A stretch of DNA of 64,000 nucleotides, taken from an uncultured Oscillospiraceae bacterium. Its GTDB lineage: Bacteria; Bacillota; Clostridia; Acetivibrionales; DTU013. The stretch covers positions 104,263-168,262 of the forward strand of contig CAZEIH010000002.1 in assembly GCA_964512095.1 (NCBI GenBank). Direction: 5' to 3'. Position numbers and translations under genes: made by a program. How positions within the stretch are numbered: position 1 is the first letter of the stretch; each line of letters starts with the position of its first letter. Under the pieces are notes generated by a model. The model was given only the letters and a program-made list of their open reading frames with translations, was not told the DNA's origin and searched no databases. Positions 28,317 through 46,137 of this stretch are shown here, one piece after another.

Positions 28317-28553
28317 TTAGACCTCCATTTCTTCTAAGTCAAACTCTGCAAGGAGCCTTTTTAGCTGTTCCACCTCACCCTTGTTCAGTGTTACTCCCTT
28401 GCCCATCTTTTCATGGTTCTCATCCCAGTCTCTGATATCAATCTTGGGTTTACGATCGTTCCAGCTAACAAGATTGACCTCCTTATTCCACCCCTTTGTT
28501 CCCTCTCCAATAACTCCTATTGACTTTTTAATTTCATATTTCAATTCAGCCAT
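28317..28553 (-). CDS. PC4/YdbC-like small ssDNA-binding-fold protein
   Basis: 78 aa from ATG 28553 (AGGAGG upstream): MAELKYEIKKSIGVI...VNLVSWNDRKPKIDIRDW. Family assignment is from memory. The ORF-track start at 28655 is an extension. Confidence 0.6.
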   Translation of the reverse strand: MAELKYEIKKSIGVIGEGTKGWNKEVNLVSWNDRKPKIDIRDWDENHEKMGKGVTLNKGEVEQLKRLLAEFDLEEMEV

Positions 28554-28696
28554 TCTCCATCCTCCTAACTTACTTAATAAATTTTGAATTGTCTTACATT
28601 CTTCTGTGGCTTTAACAAGGCCGGAGCTACGTACACTGACCATAAGCAAAATCAAGCATGGTACCAGATTACGGGGTCTCTTTCGGTTCTAACTCA

Positions 28697-29374
28697 TTAT
28701 TTTTCAGGTATACTTGTAAGCTCAAGTCTACCATTGCCCTTTGCATAGGCAAGGAACACAGCCTGCTCTTCAGTTACCTCAAACAGTATATATTGGGGCA
28801 GCTTACTTGTCTCATCACCATCTAACAATTTCCCGTCCTCGGCAACTAATCCAGCAATCCTAATACCCTTCAGCAGCTTGACTCCGTTAGACAGCGGCGG
28901 CACTCCAACCACTCCCCCAGCCTCCGGAGGAGTGTTATTCTCTTCACCATAGTTGGGAATATAAATCACATCAACATACTGATCCTTTGTCAGCTGCCAG
29001 GCATTTGCCTGATCACATTTTGGTTCCAGGCAAAACAGCCTGCTAGACCTATTCAGCACTTCAATCCCCTGGATAGGTTCATCCGCCAACCTGCCCTTAA
29101 GTAGCAGCTCGCCCCGGTGTATGAAATCTGCCGCTACCATATTAGCAGCTTCATCAATACTCCTAACTGCATCCTTATGTACTGCACTACTTCCTATTTC
29201 TTTTATTTCCAGCATTTCTCCGGTTATAACAGTATTCTCGTCAATATCTCTGGCTGCAAAAACTACACTCTCCCTGACCTCATAGCCTGACGCATTTGAA
29301 ATAATCATCATCTCTATTACAACAAGCAGGATGACTATCACAAGGGCGCCACCAACCCAACCATATTTTCTCAT
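28697..29374 (-). CDS. SAF-domain protein, CpaB/RcpC-like pilus assembly protein
   Basis: N-terminal TM segment, then a SAF-like region (VVFAARDIDENTVITGEMLEIKEI). Last gene of the Tad-like cluster. Start ATG at 29374 after TAGGTG. Confidence 0.65.
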   Translation of the reverse strand: MRKYGWVGGALVIVILLVVIEMMIISNASGYEVRESVVFAARDIDENTVITGEMLEIKEIGSSAVHKDAVRSIDEAANMVAADFIHRGELLLKGRLADEPIQGIEVLNRSSRLFCLEPKCDQANAWQLTKDQYVDVIYIPNYGEENNTPPEAGGVVGVPPLSNGVKLLKGIRIAGLVAEDGKLLDGDETSKLPQYILFEVTEEQAVFLAYAKGNGRLELTSIPEK

Positions 29375-29404
29375 ATAAAGCACCTACATATCAATATTTT
29401 TTAT

Positions 29405-29516: not shown

Positions 29517-30056
29517 TTAATTGTTCAAAGGTATCTCCGAATCAACATGAACCACAATATCTATGTGCTCCTTCCCCAGCATATTCAATATAATGCCTCT
29601 GTAAAGCGAAGGCTTAACCGGTACATTAATACTGCTGTGTACTGCTGGCTTTGTAATGACAGCCCCATCGGGACAAGTCACAGGAAAGCCAACGCTATAG
29701 ACCACCAAGGACAACACCTCTACTCGTCCCTCCACGATAGAGTCGGGCTTTGAATTCAAATCCGTTCCCAGCTTAAGATTGCGTATAAGCATTTCCTTGT
29801 ATATGTCCAATGCCTCACTATAAGACAAATCTACGGTGAGCTTCCCTAAATCCTTTGCAGCCAAAGCATTATAGGCAGATATATTGGTCATGTCAATCGC
29901 ATCTCTAATAACTCTTGCTTTCTCCATCAGCACGTACTTTTCCATGACTGTTGAAAAAATAGGTAAAATAACAAATACTAACATCGCTGCCATAAGAACA
30001 ATTTCAGTGACAATACTTCCTTTATTACATTTAAATTTGTTCATACCTTGGAACAC
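29517..30056 (-). CDS. TadE-like pseudopilin / membrane protein
   Basis: 179 aa with a TadE-type N-terminus (KGSIVTEIVLMAAMLVFVILPIF). The start is ambiguous between GTG 30056 and ATG 30044. Confidence 0.6.
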   Translation of the reverse strand: MFQGMNKFKCNKGSIVTEIVLMAAMLVFVILPIFSTVMEKYVLMEKARVIRDAIDMTNISAYNALAAKDLGKLTVDLSYSEALDIYKEMLIRNLKLGTDLNSKPDSIVEGRVEVLSLVVYSVGFPVTCPDGAVITKPAVHSSINVPVKPSLYRGIILNMLGKEHIDIVVHVDSEIPLNN

Positions 30057-30057
30057 A

Positions 30058-30441
30058 TCAGTTCACTACCTTCCTTGACATCGTCGACTTGTCATATGCT
30101 ATCCTAAGAGTCACAATGCCTCTTTCCAAAAACCCAGTAATTCCATTGTAGGTATAATCACCCTCAACCCGCAGCGTTAACATACCGCCCTGTCTAGCAT
30201 TTTCAGTGGCAGTTATCGTCACATTTGTCAGTCCCATACTCTCCAGTTCCGCTTTCAGAGCCATCTTCTCAGAGCTGGACAAGCCGCCTGCATTTTCCAT
30301 CTGAAGCAAGGCGCCTCTGCAAAGTATGTCAATATCACCTTTTGCTGAAAGAGGTACAAAAAATTCTACCATATAGACCAGAATTAAAACCACAAGTATA
30401 AGCATTATTCCAGTCACCAAGGGTTTCACAGGCATGTCCAT
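30058..30441 (-). CDS. small membrane-anchored protein of Firmicute Tad loci (DUF4320-like, from memory)
   Basis: 127 aa with a single N-terminal TM segment then a beta-rich domain. Lies between the pilin and the TadE-like gene. Confidence 0.5.
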   Translation of the reverse strand: MDMPVKPLVTGIMLILVVLILVYMVEFFVPLSAKGDIDILCRGALLQMENAGGLSSSEKMALKAELESMGLTNVTITATENARQGGMLTLRVEGDYTYNGITGFLERGIVTLRIAYDKSTMSRKVVN

Positions 30442-30453
30442 CGTCCTCTCTAA

Positions 30454-30693
30454 TCATGCAGTAGGAAATATCCTGTTTGCAATGACATTGTCCCACCAGT
30501 CTCCTAGCCCGTTCATTATGTCTTGGGCAAATGTGCGCATACTGGGAATGACAATAAAAGCCGCAATGATAATCGCTGCAGCTATCCCTAGCAGCTCATT
30601 CAAGCCAAACCCATCCTCTTTGGAGATAAAGCGTTTTTTGAAGAGACCATTTCTAAGATGCTGCATTCGCCTAACTAAATTTACAAATTCCAT
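30454..30693 (-). CDS. Flp/type-IV-like prepilin
   Basis: 79 aa from ATG 30693 (GGAGGG 6 nt upstream). Basic leader, then KEDG|FGLNELLGIAAAIIIAAFIVI, which places Gly at -1, Phe at +1 and Glu at +5, followed by a hydrophobic helix. Confidence 0.65.
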   Translation of the reverse strand: MEFVNLVRRMQHLRNGLFKKRFISKEDGFGLNELLGIAAAIIIAAFIVIPSMRTFAQDIMNGLGDWWDNVIANRIFPTA

Positions 30694-30718
30694 CTTCAAC
30701 CCTCCACCTACATAATAA

Positions 30719-31624
30719 TTAATTTATGAATATCTTTCCTACTGCCTGACCTACTTCATCAAGCATAGGAATGATTATCATCGCAACCACGATAGCAACA
30801 TAAACGCCAGCAGCAGCAACACTTCTGGTCCTGCAACTATCTGTCTCCGCCTGGATATAATTAAAGTATTTTTTGAACATTATATCCTCCTGCCTGGCAA
30901 GTAGCTCCTTGTTATCCCCTGTATCTATGCCCTGCTTAAGCGCGACACACAGGGTCTCAGCTTCATGGGTGTCAAAATTGGACCTGAACTCCTCAATTGC
31001 AATATCAATATCAAGGGTCAACTCATATCTTGCAGCCAATTTGACAAGTATACCCCTGAGCTCATTATCATCAGTCACCTCATAAACCGTCCTTATAGCA
31101 TCCGTCGGTTTCACGCCTGAAGATATCTGATTGTGAAGGTATTTATATATCTTGTATATATGCTTTTGAAACCGAAGATTCACCCTTCGTTTGTTTGACG
31201 CTACCGCATTCTCCAGGATTGAGTTAATAAGTATGACTAACATAAGTGGTCTTATCAAATCAGGAAAATTAGTACAGAAAGCTATAATAAAAACAATCCC
31301 TGAGAGAGCATATTTTACAAGCATGTAAACCACAGGTGCATATTCACCTCTGTAGCCGGCTCGTTTCAGCTTTATGCAGGCCCTTCGGTATAATTTGCCC
31401 TTATCCAACCTTTTATCCCAAGCCTCCATCCCCTGTTGGACAAACATAGAACATCGTTTATATACCGATAAGCCGGGGTTTCTAGCTCCCAGGGCTTCAG
31501 CAACACGTTTAGAGCCCACTATAGTCAATCGCTTCGATAGGAAAATCCCCAAAATCACATTTACAGCACCTAGAAGAAGAAACATTATGCTGTTGTCTTT
31601 GTACAACAATAAAATATTCTCCAA
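30719..31624 (-). CDS. tadC: TadC-like inner-membrane platform protein (T2SSF domain)
   Basis: 301 aa with TM-soluble-TM topology and a GspF-like helical domain. Confidence 0.7.
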   Translation of the reverse strand: MENILLLYKDNSIMFLLLGAVNVILGIFLSKRLTIVGSKRVAEALGARNPGLSVYKRCSMFVQQGMEAWDKRLDKGKLYRRACIKLKRAGYRGEYAPVVYMLVKYALSGIVFIIAFCTNFPDLIRPLMLVILINSILENAVASNKRRVNLRFQKHIYKIYKYLHNQISSGVKPTDAIRTVYEVTDDNELRGILVKLAARYELTLDIDIAIEEFRSNFDTHEAETLCVALKQGIDTGDNKELLARQEDIMFKKYFNYIQAETDSCRTRSVAAAGVYVAIVVAMIIIPMLDEVGQAVGKIFIN

Positions 31625-31630
31625 AATATA

Positions 31631-32605
31631 TCACCCCTGATTTCTAAACCTGGTTATACCAGCAGTTAGATAAAAGCCAAAAGCATACATACCGCTAAAC
31701 ACCATCAACAGTAGCTTACCCGTGATAGTGTCCAGATAGAAGCCACTAACCTGGGGAGATAGCTTTATGAAAAAGTATCCAATACCCAGTACGGCAAACA
31801 TGATAAAATATATCAGCAGTCTGTCCTTATATGTGGAAATCTTTCGTCTGTTATACTCTTCGTCTATCTTGTAAAACTGGTTTTCAAGATTCGACAGTAG
31901 CTTTATAATGTCCCCCCTATGGCGGATACTGAGCTTGACGTTAACGATGAAGTCCCTAAACTGCAAGTCATCCACCTTCATTTGCAATATATCAAGAGCC
32001 TCCCATGGATCCATGCCGCGATTCACTTGAATAACCATATCTCTTATAAATGTCTGTAACGGCTCCCCAATATTTGATGAAAGAGATTTTTCAAAGGCAT
32101 ATACGATATCCTCCTTGACAGCACACCATCTACTAAGAACAGAAATGTATTCTGCCAACCTTCTCCTAATAGTCTCTGCGTTATACCTAGAAAGCAACTC
32201 TAACACAAATAATGGTGCAATTGAGAGTATAGCGCTTATAACAGCTGATGAAGGGAAAAATCTCAGGAGGCTGTATACGGGTCGGTATACAGCGACGAAT
32301 ATCAATATGATCATAAGAATCAATATGTAAACATTCATAAAGGGTAGGTAATGCCTGATATTCGATTTCTCAATATACAATAATTCTATTCGTTCCAGTA
32401 GATTCATACCTCCATAATAGCTTGTCCCTCCTTCGCCGTACCCCTCCCTAGCCTGTATTCTGCTGGCGTGTTTGATGGGCTCCTTTATCTTTTTCATGAG
32501 CCAATCCTTAAGTCGAACAAATAAAACCGATAGATTAAAATTCTTAGCAACAACCACTGCTAACAAAATATTGGCGCATAGAAGCAACCCTGAAATTATT
32601 TTCAA
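31631..32605 (-). CDS. tadB: TadB-like inner-membrane platform protein (T2SSF domain)
   Basis: Likely TTG start at 32605 (GAGGGG 7 nt upstream), immediately after the tadA stop. The ORF-track start at 32683 overlaps tadA. Confidence 0.7.
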   Translation of the reverse strand: MKIISGLLLCANILLAVVVAKNFNLSVLFVRLKDWLMKKIKEPIKHASRIQAREGYGEGGTSYYGGMNLLERIELLYIEKSNIRHYLPFMNVYILILMIILIFVAVYRPVYSLLRFFPSSAVISAILSIAPLFVLELLSRYNAETIRRRLAEYISVLSRWCAVKEDIVYAFEKSLSSNIGEPLQTFIRDMVIQVNRGMDPWEALDILQMKVDDLQFRDFIVNVKLSIRHRGDIIKLLSNLENQFYKIDEEYNRRKISTYKDRLLIYFIMFAVLGIGYFFIKLSPQVSGFYLDTITGKLLLMVFSGMYAFGFYLTAGITRFRNQG

Positions 32606-32609
32606 ATTT

Positions 32610-33800
32610 TCACCCCTCACTGGCACAATATAGCCTATTGTAAACAAAGGCATCCTCAGCGTTGTTGTATTCACATACCTCAAGAATCTCCACCACTCGG
32701 AATTCTTTAAGATAAATGATGATATTTATACTTCTGCCCAGCATATCCTTTATTGTCTTTTCACTTTCGCTAATTTTTGCGCCCTTACTAAGGGTAAGCA
32801 GTCTAGCAAGTGCGTCACCTGCGCTTTCGGAATGGGTAGTAGCAATCCCCCTGTGTCCTGAAAAAGCTGCTTTTATAAACTCCCAGGCTTCATCACCCGT
32901 TATCTCTCCTACACAATATGTGTCAAGGGACATAGTAAGGCCGTCTCGAACTAAGTCCTTCAATGTAACAGGCCTTCCACCATCATTCTGTTTCTTTACA
33001 CGCTGCTCGATACAATAAGGCTTATCCGGGTAGATCTCTGCATCAGATTCAACTATTAGTACTCTCTCCATCTCTGGCAGAGTATTTAAGAAGGCACGCA
33101 ACAGTGTTGTTTTGCCTGCCGCCCCTTTCCCGCAGAATAATACTGATGCATCACTACTTGCAAGCCTTTCAAGCATCTCGATAAGCTTACTATTAAGCAT
33201 TCCAAGCTTCTGTAAATCCCTTAGCGTATAGCTGTCCTTTCGGTGCTTTCTAATACTGATGGCAGGGCTTGATATGTTTCTAGGTTTTATAGAAACATTA
33301 ATCCTTAACCTATTTTTTTCGTCCGTTACCCTACAATGGCTGTCATTTTCATTCAATATCCCCCCGTTACGGACAGCAACAAGCTTACAATATGTATCAA
33401 ATATTTTCTCGCTACCAAAATTCACGGGTATTTTACTACGGACTCCATGCCGTTTTATCACAAACTGATTATAAAATGTTCCGTCGATATCAGTAATATC
33501 CTCTTCATCAATATAAGGCTGCAATTCACCATATCCGAACATAAAGTCAAATACCTTTCTTATCAGTTCATCTCTGTTAAATCCAAAATGATACCTGTGC
33601 ATATCAATATCCTTAATTATTTCCGTCTCAAGAACACTCCTTGAAATACGCCCAGCAGACACATCTGCCACTAAAGCCGGACATTCTCTAAGAATATCAT
33701 TTGTGATGCTGGATATGATTGTATTCATATCTCCTATGTTTTTAGAATTAATGTTATGGCTTTCATAAAACAATTTGTTGTGGGACTTTACTATTGGCAT
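32610..33800 (-). CDS. tadA: TadA/CpaF-family secretion ATPase (divergent)
   Basis: Start ATG at 33800 (GGAGGG upstream). Walker A GKGAAGKTT, Asp box VESDAE, Walker B YCVGEITGDEA, His box GHRGIATTHSES. Confidence 0.8.
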   Translation of the reverse strand: MPIVKSHNKLFYESHNINSKNIGDMNTIISSITNDILRECPALVADVSAGRISRSVLETEIIKDIDMHRYHFGFNRDELIRKVFDFMFGYGELQPYIDEEDITDIDGTFYNQFVIKRHGVRSKIPVNFGSEKIFDTYCKLVAVRNGGILNENDSHCRVTDEKNRLRINVSIKPRNISSPAISIRKHRKDSYTLRDLQKLGMLNSKLIEMLERLASSDASVLFCGKGAAGKTTLLRAFLNTLPEMERVLIVESDAEIYPDKPYCIEQRVKKQNDGGRPVTLKDLVRDGLTMSLDTYCVGEITGDEAWEFIKAAFSGHRGIATTHSESAGDALARLLTLSKGAKISESEKTIKDMLGRSINIIIYLKEFRVVEILEVCEYNNAEDAFVYNRLYCASEG

Positions 33801-33804
33801 ACTA

Positions 33805-35760
33805 TTAACCCTCCTGAGTGATATCCTTTTTGCTTTTAGAAGCGGTAAAAATATCTGTAAACAGCTGTATTGCCTTCTGTAGCGGGCCAATCGCAGGTAC
33901 CAGCCCGAGTTTTTCATGTATGCTGTAATATTCATTTAATATTTCCTTTTCCATATGGAAGGAATACGCTCCATTCAGATTCCTGTACATTGCTCGTTTT
34001 CCGCTGGGGGAGATTCTTCCAATGAGATTATCTTGTGTCGCCTGTCTAACCTCAGCCTCACTCATATCAGATCCTTTATCATGTTCAAAGAGAACAAACC
34101 TGGTATTCTCCAGTGGCAGGTGCTGCTTATCGTTTAAAAAAGCTATATATGAGTTGAATTCACGTAGGCATGTAACATTTCCCCTGACAGCTGCAATATT
34201 GATATCTGATTTCAACAAAGCAGATAATGTGAAAGCATCATATATAGAGCGATTTACTAGCAAAACTGTGATATCAAAGCTACGGTAGCATTTTTCTATT
34301 AGCTGGGGTAAACTATCCTCGCTATAGTACTCATAATTCTCCAACCTAAAATTTCCTGTGATGATATACAGGTTCTTCATTTCCTTCTTAACTATGGCAG
34401 CCTGCTTAAGCAAAGCTGAAGATAGAATGCCTCTGTTGATGGCATCCATTACCATGTCAAGCCCAGAGTGACCTAATATTTCTGATTCATTTCCCTTGAC
34501 TGGATACCTTCCTGTATTGAGGATAATATCTGATTTGGGTGCCAGCAGATCAATATCTGCCAGAAGTACTTCGCTGCCCGTGTATTTGGCGGCAGTATAA
34601 GCAAGCTCACATCCAAACTCAGCATTGTCCCATACAGCTATAACTAGTCTCTTGAAGCTTCTCTTTGGATTCGCCCCTTGTTCAAAAGCCCTTTTAGTAT
34701 TGTTAGAATTTGTATTGTTAGAATTTGCAACGTTGCATCTTCGCGTTTTAACTTTCTTCTTTCCTATAGCTGATTTCATGCGACCGTCGACACCATTTCC
34801 TTCATTAGTCAGGCCACTAACTCCTGCTATCTCTCTATTACCGGTGCATATATCACTTTTGCCATCACAACCATAACCAACCTGCCCAGTGTCATCTCCC
34901 ATCCGCTCCTCTCCAACGCGCCTATTGACAAATGTATCCCTGCTGTACTCACCCCAATTATTACCCCTTCCTACCAGACAATGGCCCTGAAATTCTATTA
35001 GCTCTGCCATCAGCTCAGATACACTCTGATAACGTTCTGTCATTGTTTCACAGGTACATTTGTCTATTATCGCCTCTAAATCTGCTGAAAGCTGCTGATT
35101 ATAGTATCTAATAGGCCTAAGCTTATATGGAGCCACCACAGGGCTTTTCCCAGTCAACAGATGATGTAGTGTAACACCAAAACTGTAAATATCAGATACT
35201 GCACTAGTCTGACCAGTCCCGAACTGCTCGGGAGCAGCATACCCTCTCGTTCCTATATAAACTGTGTCTGCATCGGATTGGGGCTTATACTCACGAGCAG
35301 TACCAAAATCAATCAGCATAAGCTTTCCTTTTTCAGTCAGTATTATATTTGAGGGCTTGATATCTCTGTAAATAATTGGGTTGGGTTTAATTGAGTGCAG
35401 ATAATCCAAGGCCTTGCACAGTTGAATTGCCCAATCGACAACAATTTCCTCTTCAAACCTTCCCTCCTCAGCAAGCTTTTTATCAAGGGAAACACCTTCT
35501 ATGAAATCCGATATCATATAAAGATAACCATCCTCTTCTATGATGTCAAAAAGCCTAGGCAATGCCGGGTGGCGCAGCTTTTTAAGCAAATTAGGCTCTG
35601 CTGCCAGGTTGATTTGCATATCAGCCATCATATTGATTTCCTTAATAGCCCAGTAAGTGTCTGTATTGATGTTTCTGGCCAAATAAACAGTACCCATACC
35701 GCCCTTGCCTAATATCCCCTCTACAATATATCGTTCATCAAAAAAATCTCCTACCTGCAT
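33805..35760 (-). CDS. Hanks-type Ser/Thr protein kinase fused to a degenerate ParA/MinD/TadZ-like domain
   Basis: Start ATG at 35760 (GGAGGG 5 nt upstream). Kinase motifs: GKGGMGTVYLA, WAIKE, YRDIKPSNIIL, DFGTA, YAAPEQ. The C-terminal ~280 aa aligns by eye to MinD/TadZ (LVIAVW-DNAEFGCE-LAYTAAKYTGSEVLLADIDL), with Walker A lost. Confidence 0.8.
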   Translation of the reverse strand: MQVGDFFDERYIVEGILGKGGMGTVYLARNINTDTYWAIKEINMMADMQINLAAEPNLLKKLRHPALPRLFDIIEEDGYLYMISDFIEGVSLDKKLAEEGRFEEEIVVDWAIQLCKALDYLHSIKPNPIIYRDIKPSNIILTEKGKLMLIDFGTAREYKPQSDADTVYIGTRGYAAPEQFGTGQTSAVSDIYSFGVTLHHLLTGKSPVVAPYKLRPIRYYNQQLSADLEAIIDKCTCETMTERYQSVSELMAELIEFQGHCLVGRGNNWGEYSRDTFVNRRVGEERMGDDTGQVGYGCDGKSDICTGNREIAGVSGLTNEGNGVDGRMKSAIGKKKVKTRRCNVANSNNTNSNNTKRAFEQGANPKRSFKRLVIAVWDNAEFGCELAYTAAKYTGSEVLLADIDLLAPKSDIILNTGRYPVKGNESEILGHSGLDMVMDAINRGILSSALLKQAAIVKKEMKNLYIITGNFRLENYEYYSEDSLPQLIEKCYRSFDITVLLVNRSIYDAFTLSALLKSDINIAAVRGNVTCLREFNSYIAFLNDKQHLPLENTRFVLFEHDKGSDMSEAEVRQATQDNLIGRISPSGKRAMYRNLNGAYSFHMEKEILNEYYSIHEKLGLVPAIGPLQKAIQLFTDIFTASKSKKDITQEG

Positions 35761-35992
35761 GCCGTCCCTCCACAAATCAAGCGATATTATTCCTATCATT
35801 TTGAATGTCTTACATTTTATTGCATTTGTAAGATGTGACTGATTCTATCATAATTTTAATTCTTTTTCCATACTTTTTTGTTAAATTTTTCTTATTTAAT
35901 GTATAAAAGTTCGGCAGATACAGCAATTATGCAGTAAACAAGACATGAACTAATTTGTTAGCCGTTGGGAAATAATGTTAATTTGAAATGTG

Positions 35993-41786: not shown

Positions 41787-43094
41787 CTACAGAGTCTCAA
41801 TCTTCGACCTGTCAACAATATCCTTCATTGCATTTTTAGTATCAAATATTAACCTGCTATGTTCATTTATAAAATTATAGTCATACACACTATGCATAGT
41901 TGTAATAATTATCAAATCTGCCGCATCAAGAGTTTCGGCTTCTAATTCAGTAGATTTTAATGTCAGGCCTTTGAAGCTGAACTCCGGCACATAAGGGTCA
42001 TTATACCTAAGATTCGCGCCATTACTAACCAACAAATCAATAACCTCCAAGGCAGGAGACTCTCTTACGTCATCAATATCTTGCTTATATGCCGTACCAA
42101 GCACAAAAATTTTTGACCCATTAAGAGGCTTCCCAAAGCGATTAAGTATTTTCATAGTTCTTTCCAGTACAAACTCAGGCATAGAGTTGTTGATTTCTCC
42201 GGCAGTCTCTATCAATCTTGTATGATATCCGAATTCCCGTGCTTTCCATGTTAGATAGAATGGGTCAACTGCGATACAATGACCTCCAACGCCGGGTCCT
42301 GGATAGAAAGGCATGAAGCCGTAGGGCTTGGTTTTGGCAGCCTCGATGACCTCCCATATATCTATTCCCATCTTATCGCATATTAAAGCCATCTCATTAG
42401 CCAGGGCGATATTAACGTTTCTAAATGTATTTTCAAGGATTTTTTCCATCTCTGCAATTTTGGGCGAGGAAGCTTTGAATACTTCACTGTCAAGTACATT
42501 GTTATATAGCGCAGATGCTACGTCTGTACAATCCGGCGTAACTCCACCGACTACCTTTGGTGTGTTCTTAGTTTTGTATATTTTGTTGCCTGGATCCACA
42601 CGTTCAGGGGAGAAAGCTAGATAAAAATCCACCCCACATTTCAAGCCGGTTGACTCAAGAATCGGCAACACAACTTCCTCAGTAGTCCCAGGATAAGTAG
42701 TGCTCTCCAGCACAACCAGCATACCCTTGTACAGGTACTTTGCTATTTCCCTTACAGAGCTTACTACATACGAAATGTCCGGCTGAAAGTACTGATCCAG
42801 CGGCGTAGGTACACAGATAGCGATACAGTCAATATCCGAAATAAACCTATAATCGTTAGTTGCCTTCAGCTTGTCCGATTTGACAATACTTTTAAGATCA
42901 CCGGGGATTATATCACCAATATAATTAATGCCCTCATTGACCATTTTAACCTTCTGCTCCTGTATGTCAAAGCCAATCACCCTGTACCCCGCCTTAGCCT
43001 TCTCGACAGCAAGGGGAAGCCCAACATAGCCCAGACCCACCACACCGACTACTGCTGTTTTATTATTGATTTTGTCAAGCAATGCTTTTTTCAT
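41787..43094 (-). CDS. UDP-N-acetyl-D-glucosamine/mannosamine 6-dehydrogenase (WbpA/WecC family)
   Basis: 435 aa with NAD fold GLGYVGLP and a catalytic Cys region (GPGVGGHCI). Confidence 0.85.
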   Translation of the reverse strand: MKKALLDKINNKTAVVGVVGLGYVGLPLAVEKAKAGYRVIGFDIQEQKVKMVNEGINYIGDIIPGDLKSIVKSDKLKATNDYRFISDIDCIAICVPTPLDQYFQPDISYVVSSVREIAKYLYKGMLVVLESTTYPGTTEEVVLPILESTGLKCGVDFYLAFSPERVDPGNKIYKTKNTPKVVGGVTPDCTDVASALYNNVLDSEVFKASSPKIAEMEKILENTFRNVNIALANEMALICDKMGIDIWEVIEAAKTKPYGFMPFYPGPGVGGHCIAVDPFYLTWKAREFGYHTRLIETAGEINNSMPEFVLERTMKILNRFGKPLNGSKIFVLGTAYKQDIDDVRESPALEVIDLLVSNGANLRYNDPYVPEFSFKGLTLKSTELEAETLDAADLIIITTMHSVYDYNFINEHSRLIFDTKNAMKDIVDRSKIETL

Positions 43095-43172
43095 TTAACC
43101 GCCGCCTTCTTGTATAAAAGTATCAGCCAAATATATTAATTAACACTTATTTAAAATATCGTCTTTTTCCTG

Positions 43173-43201
43173 TCAAAGCATAAGCCAATAATGCCGATAA
43201 T
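43173..43201 (+). promoter_or_regulatory. sigma-28/SigD-type promoter upstream of the wbpB/D/E-like operon
   Basis: tCAAA (43173-43177), 15-nt spacer, GCCGATAA (43193-43200), compared with consensus TAAA-N15-GCCGATAT. Lies 41 nt upstream of ATG 43242. Confidence 0.6.
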
Positions 43202-43241
43202 AAAGATGTTACTATTGTATTAAACAAAAGAGGTGACCCAA

Positions 43242-44279
43242 ATGAAGGATATCATTAATTTCGGTCTGGTGGGTTGTGGCAGGATATCAAAAAACCACAT
43301 AGATGCCCTGTCCAAGCTGCAAAAGGATGCAAGACTGGTCGCTGTATGTGATATAGATGAATCTAAAGCCCGTAGAACAGGTGAAGAAAACTCCATCGAT
43401 TACTACACCAGCCTTGAAAACATGCTGGCAAGAGGAGATTTGGATGCAATATCCATATGTACTCCAAGTGGCCTTCACCCCACACACGGAATTGCTGCCG
43501 CCAAAAGAAAGCTCCACGTGATAACAGAAAAACCAATGGCAACTAGCCTAAAAAAAGCTGACGAGCTTATATCTGCATGTGATGAAAATGGTGTCCAGCT
43601 ATTCGTTATAAAACAAAACCGTCTCAACTCCACTTTACAGCTTGCTAAAAGAGCTATAGACAAGGGGCGTTTCGGTCGGATATATATGGTTATAGTAAAT
43701 GTATTGTGGTCGAGGCCCCAGTCATACTATGATGACGCAAAATGGCGTGGGACCTGGGAATTTGATGGAGGAGCCTTTATGAATCAGGCAAGCCATTATG
43801 TTGATATGATAGAATGGCTCGTTGGCCCCGTCGAGAGCGTCAACGCTTATACAGGAACTCTTGCTCGTAAAATTGAAACCGAAGACTCGGGTGTAGCTGG
43901 TATCAAGTTCAGAAATGGAGCATTTGGTTCAATTAATGTGACCATGCTGACATACCCCAAGAATCTTGAAGGCTCTCTTACCATTATCGGCGAACGTGGT
44001 ACTATAAGAGTGGGCGGAGTCGCCGTCAACAAAATCGAGCATTGGGAATTTAGTGACTATGACGATGACGACAAGCTAGTAGAAACCAGCGCATACAATC
44101 CCCCGGATGTATATGGTTTCGGCCACACCGGATACTATAAAAATGTTATAGACACGCTAAAGGGCTTGGCAGAGCCCAACACCAACGGCCGGGAGGGCCG
44201 TAAATCGTTGGAGTTGATTCTGGGCATATACAAATCCTCCCGCGAAGGCCGTAGCATCTCCCTCCCTCTGGAATATTAA
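43242..44279 (+). CDS. Gfo/Idh/MocA oxidoreductase, WbpB-like (UDP-GlcNAcA 3-dehydrogenase)
   Basis: Start ATG at 43242 after AGAGGTG. N-terminal GLVGCGRISKNH Rossmann fold. Context with the DegT aminotransferase and the acetyltransferase supports the call. Confidence 0.75.
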   Translation: MKDIINFGLVGCGRISKNHIDALSKLQKDARLVAVCDIDESKARRTGEENSIDYYTSLENMLARGDLDAISICTPSGLHPTHGIAAAKRKLHVITEKPMATSLKKADELISACDENGVQLFVIKQNRLNSTLQLAKRAIDKGRFGRIYMVIVNVLWSRPQSYYDDAKWRGTWEFDGGAFMNQASHYVDMIEWLVGPVESVNAYTGTLARKIETEDSGVAGIKFRNGAFGSINVTMLTYPKNLEGSLTIIGERGTIRVGGVAVNKIEHWEFSDYDDDDKLVETSAYNPPDVYGFGHTGYYKNVIDTLKGLAEPNTNGREGRKSLELILGIYKSSREGRSISLPLEY

Positions 44280-44388
44280 ACAGGGGGACGGTTCTACCAG
44301 GGAAACATGAAGGATAAAACATGGGGACGGTTCTACTATTTAGCTTCTTTAGTGAGGAGTGTCACCATACCAATTACCGAGGTGTGAA

Positions 44389-44964
44389 ATGAAAGAATAC
44401 TTTGTACATGAATCAAGTTACATCGACGAACCATGTGAAATAGGCGCCGGAACAAAAATTTGGCACTTCTCGCATATAATGAGCGGCTGCAGGATAGGCC
44501 TTAACTGTAATATCGGGCAGAATGTGGTCATATCGCCAGAGGTAGTTATCGGGGACAATGTTAGAATTCAAAACAATGTGTCCGTCTATACAGGCGTAAT
44601 ATGCGAGGATGACGTTTTCATCGGGCCCTCTGTTGTTTTTACAAATGTCATCAACCCAAGAAGCCACATTAACAGAAAACATGAATATAGAAACACAACA
44701 GTGAAGAAGGGCGCAAGCATAGGTGCCAACGCAACCATCGTGTGCGGGCATAATATCGGCAGATATACTTTTATCGGCGCTGGTGCTGTTGTCACCAAAG
44801 ATGTGCCCGACTTTACACTGGTGGTAGGCAACCCGGCAAGGCAGGTGGGTTGGGTCTGCAAATGCGGTGCAAAGCTGCAATTTAATGATGGGAAGGGCAA
44901 CACAGTTTGTAGTGAATGTGGCTGTAAGTATGTAATAGATAATAACATGGTCAAAGAGGCATAA
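44389..44964 (+). CDS. left-handed beta-helix (hexapeptide) N-acetyltransferase, WbpD-like
   Basis: Start ATG at 44389. Hexapeptide repeats run throughout, with a C-terminal CxxC..CxxC tail. Confidence 0.75.
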   Translation: MKEYFVHESSYIDEPCEIGAGTKIWHFSHIMSGCRIGLNCNIGQNVVISPEVVIGDNVRIQNNVSVYTGVICEDDVFIGPSVVFTNVINPRSHINRKHEYRNTTVKKGASIGANATIVCGHNIGRYTFIGAGAVVTKDVPDFTLVVGNPARQVGWVCKCGAKLQFNDGKGNTVCSECGCKYVIDNNMVKEA

Positions 44965-44991
44965 ATAATACTAAATCACAGGAGGCTAAGG

Positions 44992-46137
44992 ATGAAAATC
45001 CCGTTAATAGACTTAAAAGCCCAGTATTCAACAATAAAAGGCGAGATAAAGCAAACCATTGATGAGGTGCTGGAATCTCAGCATTTTATACTAGGCTCAA
45101 AGGTAGCTGAACTGGAGCGGGAAATCGCTACCTATAGTCAATGCAAATACGCACTAGGCGTATCGTCGGGAACAGATGCCTTACTGTTGGCTTTGATGGC
45201 GTTAGATATAGGACACGATGATCTGGTTATTACGACAACCTTCACTTTTTTTGCTACAGCCGGATGTATCGCAAGGCTAGGCGCGAAGCCGCTTTTTGTG
45301 GATATCGACCCTGAAACCTTCAACATATGTCCTGAAAAACTAGAAAATCGACTGAAAACCCTGACGAAAGAAGAGCTGTCACATGTAAAGGCTATTATCC
45401 CGGTTCATCTATTCGGACAAATGGCCGATATGGAAAGAATCTTACCCCTCTGCCGCAAATACGACTTGAAAATCATCGAAGATGCAGCACAGGCAATTGG
45501 TTCCGAGTGCCCTTACGCAGGCAAGCTTCGCCGTGCCGGAAGCATTGGCGATATAGGCTGCTTCTCATTCTTCCCATCCAAAAATCTTGGTGGAATAGGC
45601 GATGGAGGAATGGTCGTCACAAATAATGAAGCCCTCTATAGCAAAATGAAAATTCTTAGAACTCATGGCTCCAGCCCGAAATATTATCACAAATTCGTCG
45701 GAGGCAACTTTAGACTCGACGAGATCCAGGCAGCTGTGCTATTAGTTAAGCTGAGTTATCTGGATAGTTGGACTGAAAAAAGGCAAATAAACGCCGGAAT
45801 ATATGACAGCATACTTGGTGGCACCTGTAGCAAAGCCATTATTACACCAAAGCTATTGCCAGAGTACAGGCACATATATAATCAGTATTGTATTAAAACA
45901 GAAAAACGTGATGAACTAAAGTCATGCCTTTCCGATAATGGCGTTACTACAGAAATCTATTATCCTCTTCCTATGCATCAGCAGGAGTGTTTTTCTTACC
46001 TTGGTAATAGAATGGGTGATTTCCCGGCAGCAGAAGAGGCTGCAGCCAGTGTGCTGGCTTTACCAGTATACCCAGAGATGAGCCATGAGGCCTTGGAATA
46101 CACCGCCGGACTTATCAGAGACTTTGCAGCAAAATAA
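44992..46137 (+). CDS. DegT/DnrJ/EryC1 PLP-dependent sugar aminotransferase, WbpE-like
   Basis: 381 aa with AGGAGG upstream. PLP-Lys motif FSFFPSKNLG. Confidence 0.85.
   Translation: MKIPLIDLKAQYSTIKGEIKQTIDEVLESQHFILGSKVAELEREIATYSQCKYALGVSSGTDALLLALMALDIGHDDLVITTTFTFFATAGCIARLGAKPLFVDIDPETFNICPEKLENRLKTLTKEELSHVKAIIPVHLFGQMADMERILPLCRKYDLKIIEDAAQAIGSECPYAGKLRRAGSIGDIGCFSFFPSKNLGGIGDGGMVVTNNEALYSKMKILRTHGSSPKYYHKFVGGNFRLDEIQAAVLLVKLSYLDSWTEKRQINAGIYDSILGGTCSKAIITPKLLPEYRHIYNQYCIKTEKRDELKSCLSDNGVTTEIYYPLPMHQQECFSYLGNRMGDFPAAEEAAASVLALPVYPEMSHEALEYTAGLIRDFAAK

Follow-up and report, generated by a model that had tools for sequence, protein, structure and literature searches.

What is a serine/threonine kinase doing at the head of an operon for a pilus machine? 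The question is raised by a stretch of 64,000 nucleotides (nt), here called the window, from an uncultured Oscillospiraceae bacterium (contig CAZEIH010000002.1, positions 104,263 to 168,262 of the forward strand). The gene at 33805 to 35760 on the minus strand encodes 651 amino acids (aa) plus stop and is the first gene of a Tad-type operon. Its product joins a Hanks-type Ser/Thr kinase domain, through a linker, to a C-terminal domain with the predicted ParA/MinD fold of TadZ, a fusion that is apparently real, conserved and undescribed. The answer that we favor, and consider somewhat better than an even bet as a whole, is that the fusion protein works in the cytoplasm as a soluble adaptor of a Gram-positive pilus machine of the Tad type (type IVc): a TadZ-like domain without a P-loop would tether a complete kinase to the machine, and the pilus would be switched by Ser/Thr phosphorylation.

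The limits of the gene have to be settled before its parts are considered. The longest open reading frame (ORF) at the locus runs from 33805 to 35799 on the minus strand (664 codons). We take the ATG at 35760 as the real start because a GGAGGG ribosome-binding site lies 6-7 nt upstream of it, close homologues have their first Met at the same place (MKAGDFF or MQAGDFF), and gene calls in independent assemblies from NCBI, Logan and ENA give the identical product of 651 aa; an exact look-up of the 664-aa form returned no record. The preliminary description of this DNA placed the gene correctly at 33805 to 35760 and left out that it is on the minus strand. It also put the stop codon 4 nt from a tadA/cpaF-like ATPase gene, and indeed the TAA (33807-33805) is followed by tagt and then by the ATG, at 33800, of an ATPase of the T2SSE family. 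The kinase gene has an AGGAGGG within its own 3' end, ahead of the ATPase ATG, and this placement together with the 4-nt gap points to translational coupling of the two genes. No transmembrane segment is found in the fusion protein with the Kyte-Doolittle scale (the maximal 19-residue mean, 1.22, falls in a core beta-strand), so the protein is probably soluble; it also carries no sensor domain.

The kinase domain (34996 to 35727, minus strand; residues ~12-255) is matched by Pfam Pkinase (PF00069) at E 8.5e-50, with 170 bits vs a cut-off of 31.7, over profile positions 2-240 of 263 (residues 25-268 in the 664-aa numbering). In the NCBIfam library this half has only generic kinase-domain matches, far under every family cut-off. 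The preliminary description had claimed that every core Hanks-kinase motif is present, and all of them are found: GKGGMGTVYLA, WAIKE, the alpha-C Glu in AEPNLL, YRDIKPSNIIL, DFGTA and GTRGYAAPEQ. To follow these motifs across species, the window protein is aligned with 42 fusion proteins from species-representative genomes of the Genome Taxonomy Database (GTDB), 43 sequences together. Invariant in all 43 (651-aa numbering) are K40 of VAIK, the alpha-C E55, Y-R-D133-x-K135-P-x-N138, D151-F-G, G-T171 and A-P-E, despite a drop in overall kinase identity to the window protein to ~50%. Only selection for catalysis would be expected to leave such a pattern. Judged by its residues, the kinase looks catalytically complete and active.

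Between the two domains the protein has ~105 unconserved residues (34666 to 34977, minus strand; residues ~262-365), where a linker of ~110 aa had been described. In the alignment of the 43 proteins its columns are 67-87% gaps with a column identity of about 0%, and its length among homologues ranges from about 25 to 185 aa. We read this segment as a flexible tether.

The C-terminal domain (33808 to 34665, minus strand; residues ~366-651) is where the identification is difficult. In the window protein this half has no significant match in Pfam, NCBIfam or the PDB sequences, and its direct identification by sequence gave noise only (Metallophos_2, ToxT_N, Cgi121, and MinD at E ~1.4 in PDB phmmer and profile searches). 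The domain is resolved only by structure prediction combined with family-wide Pfam scanning. A homology search gives 28 relatives, all of which keep every named residue of a WDNxEFxCELAY block, and the AlphaFold2 (AF2) model built from the alignment of these relatives is confident (pLDDT 84.1, pTM 0.84) and has alternating beta-alpha elements. Searched against the PDB with Foldseek, the model has 210 matches at E <= 0.001, and the top 50 are almost all NTPases of the ParA/MinD superfamily. The best match is MinD (6riq_C; E 2.5e-12, TM 0.66 on the query and 0.76 on the target), and further matches include ParA (3ea0; TM 0.82 on the target), FleN, Soj, FlhG, McdA and the TadZ of Eubacterium rectale (3fkq; E 1.9e-7). 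An exhaustive family-profile search of 1.84 billion cluster representatives brings together 387 family members at E <= 1e-3 (278 at E <= 1e-10). When the 93 family representatives of at least 380 aa are scanned with Pfam, AAA_31 is matched in 22 (weakly; best 1.1e-7), ParA in three and CbiA in two, and these matches provide a sequence-level bridge to the ParA/MinD superfamily. The preliminary description had likened the last ~280 aa to MinD, ParA and TadZ-CpaE proteins and had proposed AlphaFold and Foldseek as the check; the domain does come out of that check with a predicted TadZ-type ParA/MinD fold.

The next question is "can this domain still act as an ATPase?" At the deviant Walker A position the window protein reads VWDNAEFGCE (WDNAEFGCE at 34606 to 34632, minus strand; residues 377-385), and both lysines and the Thr are absent. 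The 43 fusion proteins all have the W, N, E, F, C and E of this motif, 40 have the D and 35 the G. The family-wide reading at this position (~150 cluster representatives) is [T/C][V/I]-W-[D/G]-N-x-E-F-[G/A]-C-E-L-A, without the lysines or the Thr/Ser of KGGxxGK[ST], and W-[DG]-N-x-E-F-[GA]-C-E is also kept in the family members that have no kinase. At the Walker B position stands VNRS (34246 to 34257, minus strand; within LLVNRS), where Asn503 replaces the Asp; 42 of the 43 fusion proteins have this Asn. When the family profile is aligned with one canonical ParA by hhalign, only the Walker B region aligns (LLVNRS on '..LIDLPP'; E 0.01, low probability).

These substitutions make the domain a predicted pseudo-ATPase in the canonical sense, for which an ATP-dependent cycle of the ParA type is unlikely. 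The preliminary description had called the domain catalytically degenerate on the strength of DNAEFGCE and VNRS. For the ATPase chemistry this stands, and as a statement of decay it does not, since the motif is conserved throughout the family. Because the replacing motif is so strongly conserved, as under purifying selection, WDNxEFGCE is better regarded as a derived functional surface. The distribution of the motif suggests that the loss of the P-loop was earlier than the fusion to the kinase, or independent of it.

The last ~30 residues of the domain (33808-33900, minus strand) form an amphipathic helix followed by basic residues (e.g., LLQKLLRLLSDIF...K.KK). An amphipathic and basic C-terminus is common to the fusion proteins and the members without kinase (e.g., ...KLKLRSFFKKLKLKRK). 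By analogy with the membrane-targeting sequence of MinD, of which it is reminiscent, the helix may anchor the domain at the membrane.

We turn our attention to the distribution of the fusion. A scan of one genome per GTDB species gives 55 loci that encode the C-terminal domain, and the comparative set, counting three loci fetched earlier, has 57. The scan loci are labelled as Clostridia or unclassified Bacillota, except for a weak partial match in a Paludibacteraceae contig and one record titled Calditrichales; most are metagenome-assembled genomes (MAGs) labelled Bacillota, Clostridiaceae, Hungateiclostridiaceae, Acetivibrionales, "Oscillospiraceae" or Ruminiclostridium. Kinase and C-terminal domain share a single ORF in 42 GTDB species-level loci, and the ATPase gene follows in 54 of the 57 related loci, which answers the question, posed in the preliminary description, of whether such genes neighbor Tad genes elsewhere. 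The rest of the order (tadA-B-C-flp-pseudopilin-cpaB) is present wherever the contig reaches far enough. The identities of the kinase and of the C-terminal domain to those of the window protein co-vary (r = 0.91). The flanks are conserved as well, in 25-37 loci, with fliD, fliS, flgN, an alpha/beta hydrolase and a radical-SAM gene on one side and the PC4-like gene, an AraC regulator and leuC/leuD on the other. Conserved flanks and operon together indicate a vertically inherited chromosomal locus, neither an artifact nor a recent mobile insertion. In two MAG loci (L002, 541-2407; L042, 8743-10503) the fusion gene is broken by a frameshift or stop within the C-terminal domain, through either sequencing error or pseudogenization.

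The operon of the window, all of it on the minus strand, justifies the name Tad-type, and the lead position that had been claimed for the fusion gene recurs with the gene order in nearly all of the 57 loci. The TadA/CpaF-like secretion ATPase (32610 to 33800; 396 aa, and called with the same length in locus L063) has a Pfam T2SSE match of 1.6e-26; its best NCBIfam match is TIGR03819, "TadA family conjugal transfer-associated ATPase", at 2.4e-37, with 129 bits vs a cut-off of 373 and thus below it. Two platform proteins follow. The TadB-like one (31631 to 32647; 338 aa in L063) is found in 46 of the 57 loci and falls just under the cut-off of Pfam T2SSF (3.6e-5; 24.1 vs 25.2 bits), and the TadC-like one (30719 to 31624), in 44 of the 57, is over it (9.8e-7, 29.2 bits). 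The Flp-like prepilin (30454 to 30699; ~80 aa, start codon uncertain) has no Pfam match and is recognized in 37 loci by the motif G/FG(L/M)NE(L)LGIAAA(I/L)IIAAF; in G/FG(L/M)NE-LLGIAAALIIAAF the Glu would be at +5 if the putative cleavage follows the first Gly. A DUF4320-like small membrane protein (30058 to 30441; weak Pfam match, E 0.0011; 40 loci) is a candidate TadE-like protein. The pseudopilin-like protein (29517 to 30056; 179 aa; 39 loci) has a class-III-type signal, G/SIVTE, with a hydrophobic stretch after SIVTE (NKG-SIVTE-IVLMAAMLVFVIL). The CpaB/RcpC-like protein (28697 to 29383; 36 loci) combines an N-terminal transmembrane segment with a SAF domain (Pfam 6.8e-8, 33.4 bits, above the cut-off), and NCBIfam TIGR03177 (pilus_cpaB) matches it at 1.4e-12, below the cut-off (47 vs 71 bits).

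Two further observations touch this operon. A perfect sigma-70 consensus (TTGACA-17-TATAAT, 12/12) lies at 29868-29896 on the minus strand, inside the pseudopilin-like gene and upstream of the cpaB-like gene; it could be a promoter or a chance match. After the cpaB-like gene comes a PC4/YdbC-like gene for a single-stranded DNA (ssDNA)-binding protein (28317-28655, minus strand; Pfam PC4 4.1e-12). This pairing recurs in 22 related loci, with a median gap of ~84 nt. This gene may be a member of the operon and may hint at a DNA-related role.

Combining the domains with their setting, the working of the adaptor kinase can be sketched; the docking, the substrates and the regulatory outcome are the parts that we infer. 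The C-terminal domain would dock on the TadA motor or on the TadB/C platform, in analogy with TadZ/CpaE, and the amphipathic basic helix at its end might hold the adaptor at the membrane. The adaptor would thereby bring the kinase within reach of the machine, where it would phosphorylate itself, Tad components, or both, with TadA, TadB/C and the adaptor domain as the candidate targets. Assembly, activity or placement of the pilus would then be switched by Ser/Thr phosphorylation in place of an ATP-dependent ParA-type cycle. The retention of the fusion in more than 40 species of Clostridia suggests that pilus assembly is under direct control by phosphorylation.

Several results weigh against this mechanism and have to be set beside it. 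The models that should recognize a TadZ (AAA_31, CbiA and ParA of Pfam, TadZ/CpaE of NCBIfam) leave the window protein unmatched even at E <= 10. Functional equivalence with TadZ is not assured, since canonical TadZ binds ATP and the C-terminal domain cannot do so canonically. If the kinase acts on TadA, the mark may be expected in the TadA sequences; no Ser/Thr position is found that is conserved in TadA of the kinase clade and absent from the non-kinase relatives, in a comparison confounded by fragments. Nor does the Pfam search see a gene for an FHA-domain protein or a PP2C phosphatase in the operon. No Peptidase_A24 (TadV/CpaA) prepilin peptidase is found in the window or, by tblastn with the A24 proteins of sister loci, in the kinase-clade loci L004-L055; any processing of the Flp-like prepilin would accordingly fall to an enzyme whose gene lies elsewhere. 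Finally, a second class of kinase fusions, described below, may mean that catalysis is perhaps not essential to the fusion architecture everywhere.

What stands in the place of the kinase in the relatives that have none? These sister proteins, of ~425-510 aa, have the same C-terminal domain. The AlphaFold model of one of them (P0006; mean pLDDT 69) has an N-terminal domain of five beta-alpha units (pLDDT ~80-86) that is CheY-like, and the top PDB match of the model in Foldseek is TadZ (3fkq; E 3.9e-9, 401 columns across both domains). The sequences of the non-kinase members are without the usual acidic pocket of receivers, and P0006 has N for the phospho-acceptor Asp; the missing pocket agrees with the atypical receiver of TadZ. 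The kinase and linker thus stand where the sister proteins have a receiver-like domain, and the proposal of the preliminary description, that the receiver was swapped for the kinase, is supported by the model. The neighbor-joining tree of the C-terminal domain has the shape of a star (internal branches 0.002-0.02, terminal ones ~0.3); it does not resolve the kinase-bearing members as one clade and is compatible with single as with multiple events of fusion or loss.

The sister loci also raise the question of what the machine is for. The four non-kinase relatives inspected with long flanks (P0006, P0010, P0013 and P0027) are all directly downstream of Gram-positive conjugation genes, and Tad-like operons headed by non-kinase members are seen in this setting at L001 (68-16423), L059 (4162-17574), L061 (1-17537) and L062 (1-12458). 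Among the conjugation genes are those for VirB4-like AAA_10/TraG P-loop, TraC-like, TrbL/PrgI and TcpC/TcpE proteins, FtsK/TraG coupling proteins, M23, NlpC_P60 or VanY hydrolases, ArdC, topoisomerase and integrase. In the non-kinase operons of L045, L059 and L061 the gene of a small A24 prepilin peptidase separates the pseudopilin-like gene from the cpaB-like one, and a gene for an HD-domain protein follows in L059 and L061. These neighborhoods hint that the sister operons are a possible filament module of conjugative elements in Firmicutes, a module of which we found no description in the literature. The kinase-bearing chromosomal operon may, in turn, be a domesticated derivative of such a module.

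An alternative account of the machine follows from this setting, namely that it is the domesticated filament module itself, serving cell-cell contact, DNA transfer or DNA uptake, with the kinase gating that process. Besides the position of the four sister genes, this account draws on the VirB4 homologues, which are found upstream in non-kinase loci only, on the conjugal name of the best NCBIfam match of the ATPase, on the PC4/YdbC-like gene after the operon in 22 loci, and on the natural transformation dependent on Flp pili that is reported for Micrococcus luteus (PMC4322843). On the other hand, neither the window nor any kinase-bearing locus has conjugation genes, the kinase-bearing loci keep a conserved chromosomal setting between flagellar and leu genes, and the ATPase match is far under its family cut-off. 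We consider this account unlikely, and it is the strongest of the alternatives. It concerns the output of the machine and is compatible with the adaptor-kinase mechanism. Joined to that mechanism it gives our boldest reading, which we put forward tentatively, as a possible outcome and not as the expected one. It would make this machine the first among pilus machines to have a Hanks kinase built in: a pseudo-ATPase without a P-loop, derived from TadZ, would tether an active kinase to the Tad motor, and direct phosphorylation would gate assembly; a conjugative filament module would have been domesticated into an Acetivibrionales-type chromosome, its receiver-like domain exchanged for a kinase and its own prepilin peptidase lost.

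A second alternative is that the kinase fold is there for its shape. It would be mainly a structural, dimerization or localization module that replaces the receiver of TadZ, with phosphotransfer dispensable, so that the fusion protein is a scaffold and not a switch. The exact place that the kinase takes, that of a receiver-like domain which is itself non-phosphorylatable, fits this view, and so does the second class of fusions. Pkinase is combined with the C-terminal domain in 49 of the 93 cluster representatives, and these fall into two classes. Class 1, to which the window protein belongs, has the canonical motifs, and its kinases share 47-83% identity with that of the window, also in members whose C-terminal domain has fallen to 23-31%. 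Class 2 (~30 representatives, e.g., P0067, P0068, P0069 and P0086) has a non-RD catalytic loop (HLDIKPxN), lacks both a glycine-rich loop and an aligned alpha-C Glu, and may consist of pseudokinases or degenerate kinases; one member (P0067; L064, 648-2312) is likewise directly upstream of a tadA orthologue, at 26 nt. A metagenome scan meant for class-2 fusions ran on a pattern common to kinase catalytic loops; its 80 hits are unrelated kinases, and the C-terminal domain is in none of them. Against the scaffold, class 2 retains the catalytic Asp, Lys and Asn and mostly DFG and APE, and in the 43 class-1 proteins every catalytic residue is invariant at kinase identities down to ~50%. For the class of the window protein we therefore regard a kinase without phosphotransfer as improbable.

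In a third alternative the C-terminal domain is still a nucleotide-dependent switch, as ParA, MinD and TadZ are, and binds ATP or another ligand through a non-canonical WDNxEFGCE site. The motif is conserved and not decayed, a D-x-D (LADIDLL) resembling switch I is retained together with a later conserved Asp, and canonical TadZ is described as binding ATP despite an atypical Walker A (PMC6668835). Against this account, the family as a whole has neither of the Walker A lysines and no Mg-coordinating Thr/Ser, and the Walker B Asp has become Asn. In the AF2 model, moreover, strand beta1 (domain residues 17-22) and helix alpha1 (25-39) are only two residues apart, which is too short for a phosphate-binding loop. 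We give the nucleotide switch a low probability, lower than that of the scaffold. As for the ORF being an assembly or frameshift artifact that joins two genes, for which only the separate ORFs of the kinase part and of the end of the C-terminal domain in L002 and L042 speak, it is refuted by the 42 species-level loci with both domains in one ORF, the identical 651-aa product in independent assemblies and the 49 of 93 cluster representatives with the same combination.

The flagellar neighborhood calls for two remarks. A regulator of the FlhG/MinD type, as the neighboring fliD-fliS-flgN genes might suggest, was considered for the fusion gene and rejected, for the gene travels with tadA even in loci without flagellar genes. 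Beside flaG-fliD-fliS-flgN the window also has, at 41787-46137, genes for a dehydrogenase of the UDP-glucose/GDP-mannose type, a GFO/IDH/MocA oxidoreductase, a hexapeptide acyltransferase and a DegT aminotransferase. These four sugar-modification genes, which we take to resemble a diacetamido-sugar pathway of the WbpA/B/D/E type, plausibly serve the glycosylation of flagellin or of the surface.

Returning to the adaptor kinase, its interest is in part that the regulation of Gram-positive Tad pili is poorly understood, as are the roles of TadZ-type proteins beyond localization. The conserved fusion predicts a kinase that acts on the machine to which it is tethered, with the likely substrates encoded next door. 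The family shows how a ParA/MinD fold can lose its nucleotide site altogether, gain a new conserved motif and stay under strong selection, separating a scaffold role from an ATPase role. Gram-positive mobile elements may carry an overlooked class of filaments, as the sister operons in conjugation modules hint. The bearers of the fusion are Clostridia of plant-biomass degradation and anaerobic digesters, where surface attachment matters ecologically.

How does the fusion protein compare with the systems already known? The preliminary description knew of no example of this architecture, and our full-text search of the literature, with many subscription papers outside its coverage, likewise found no description of a kinase-TadZ/CpaE fusion or of control of Tad pili by a Hanks kinase. 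For the non-kinase sister operons beside VirB4-type genes, the relevant precedent is the R64 thin pilus, a type IV filament module on a conjugative plasmid (PMC4027160); it differs in being a type IVb pilus of a Gram-negative IncI plasmid, with no TadZ-like gene and no kinase.

Kinases that belong to a machine are known from other secretion systems. In the type VI secretion system (T6SS) threonine phosphorylation through PpkA-Fha1 is known, and kinase components occur in variants c and d of the type VII secretion system (T7SS), where control has been proposed (PMC11217815). The likeness is in a Ser/Thr kinase that is encoded in the cluster of its own machine and is thought to control assembly or activity. 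The difference is in the way of attachment and of reading: those kinases are membrane proteins, carry sensor or extracellular parts and rely on FHA readers, whereas here the kinase is soluble and fused to the ParA-like adaptor of a Tad machine, in an operon that has neither FHA nor PP2C genes.

With MinD, ParA and FleN-FlhG the C-terminal domain shares the predicted fold (Foldseek E 2.5e-12 to 1e-8, TM up to 0.82 on the target), the D-x-D resembling switch I and, with MinD, perhaps the membrane-targeting helix at the C-terminus. It differs from them in lacking the deviant Walker A, KGGxxGK[ST], and the Walker B Asp, and without these residues an ATP-driven dimerization cycle is unlikely.

The closest relative is TadZ/CpaE, which, according to PMC6668835 and PMC11407121, goes to the pole early and is the hub that recruits the Tad components; the former also gives canonical TadZ an atypical Walker A, ATP binding and a low ATPase activity. 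The fusion gene resembles tadZ/cpaE in its place immediately upstream of tadA in a tad-type operon, and its product in the ParA/MinD fold of the C-terminal domain and in having two-domain, TadZ-like sister proteins whose best PDB match is the E. rectale protein (3fkq). It departs from TadZ/CpaE in having a Hanks kinase and a linker in place of the N-terminal atypical receiver, in a P-loop that is wholly absent and not merely atypical (with Asn for the Walker B Asp), and in being unmatched by the curated TadZ, CpaE and AAA_31 models. Given these three departures from the defining features of TadZ/CpaE, the fusion protein is to be called TadZ-like, or TadZ-derived, and not a TadZ.

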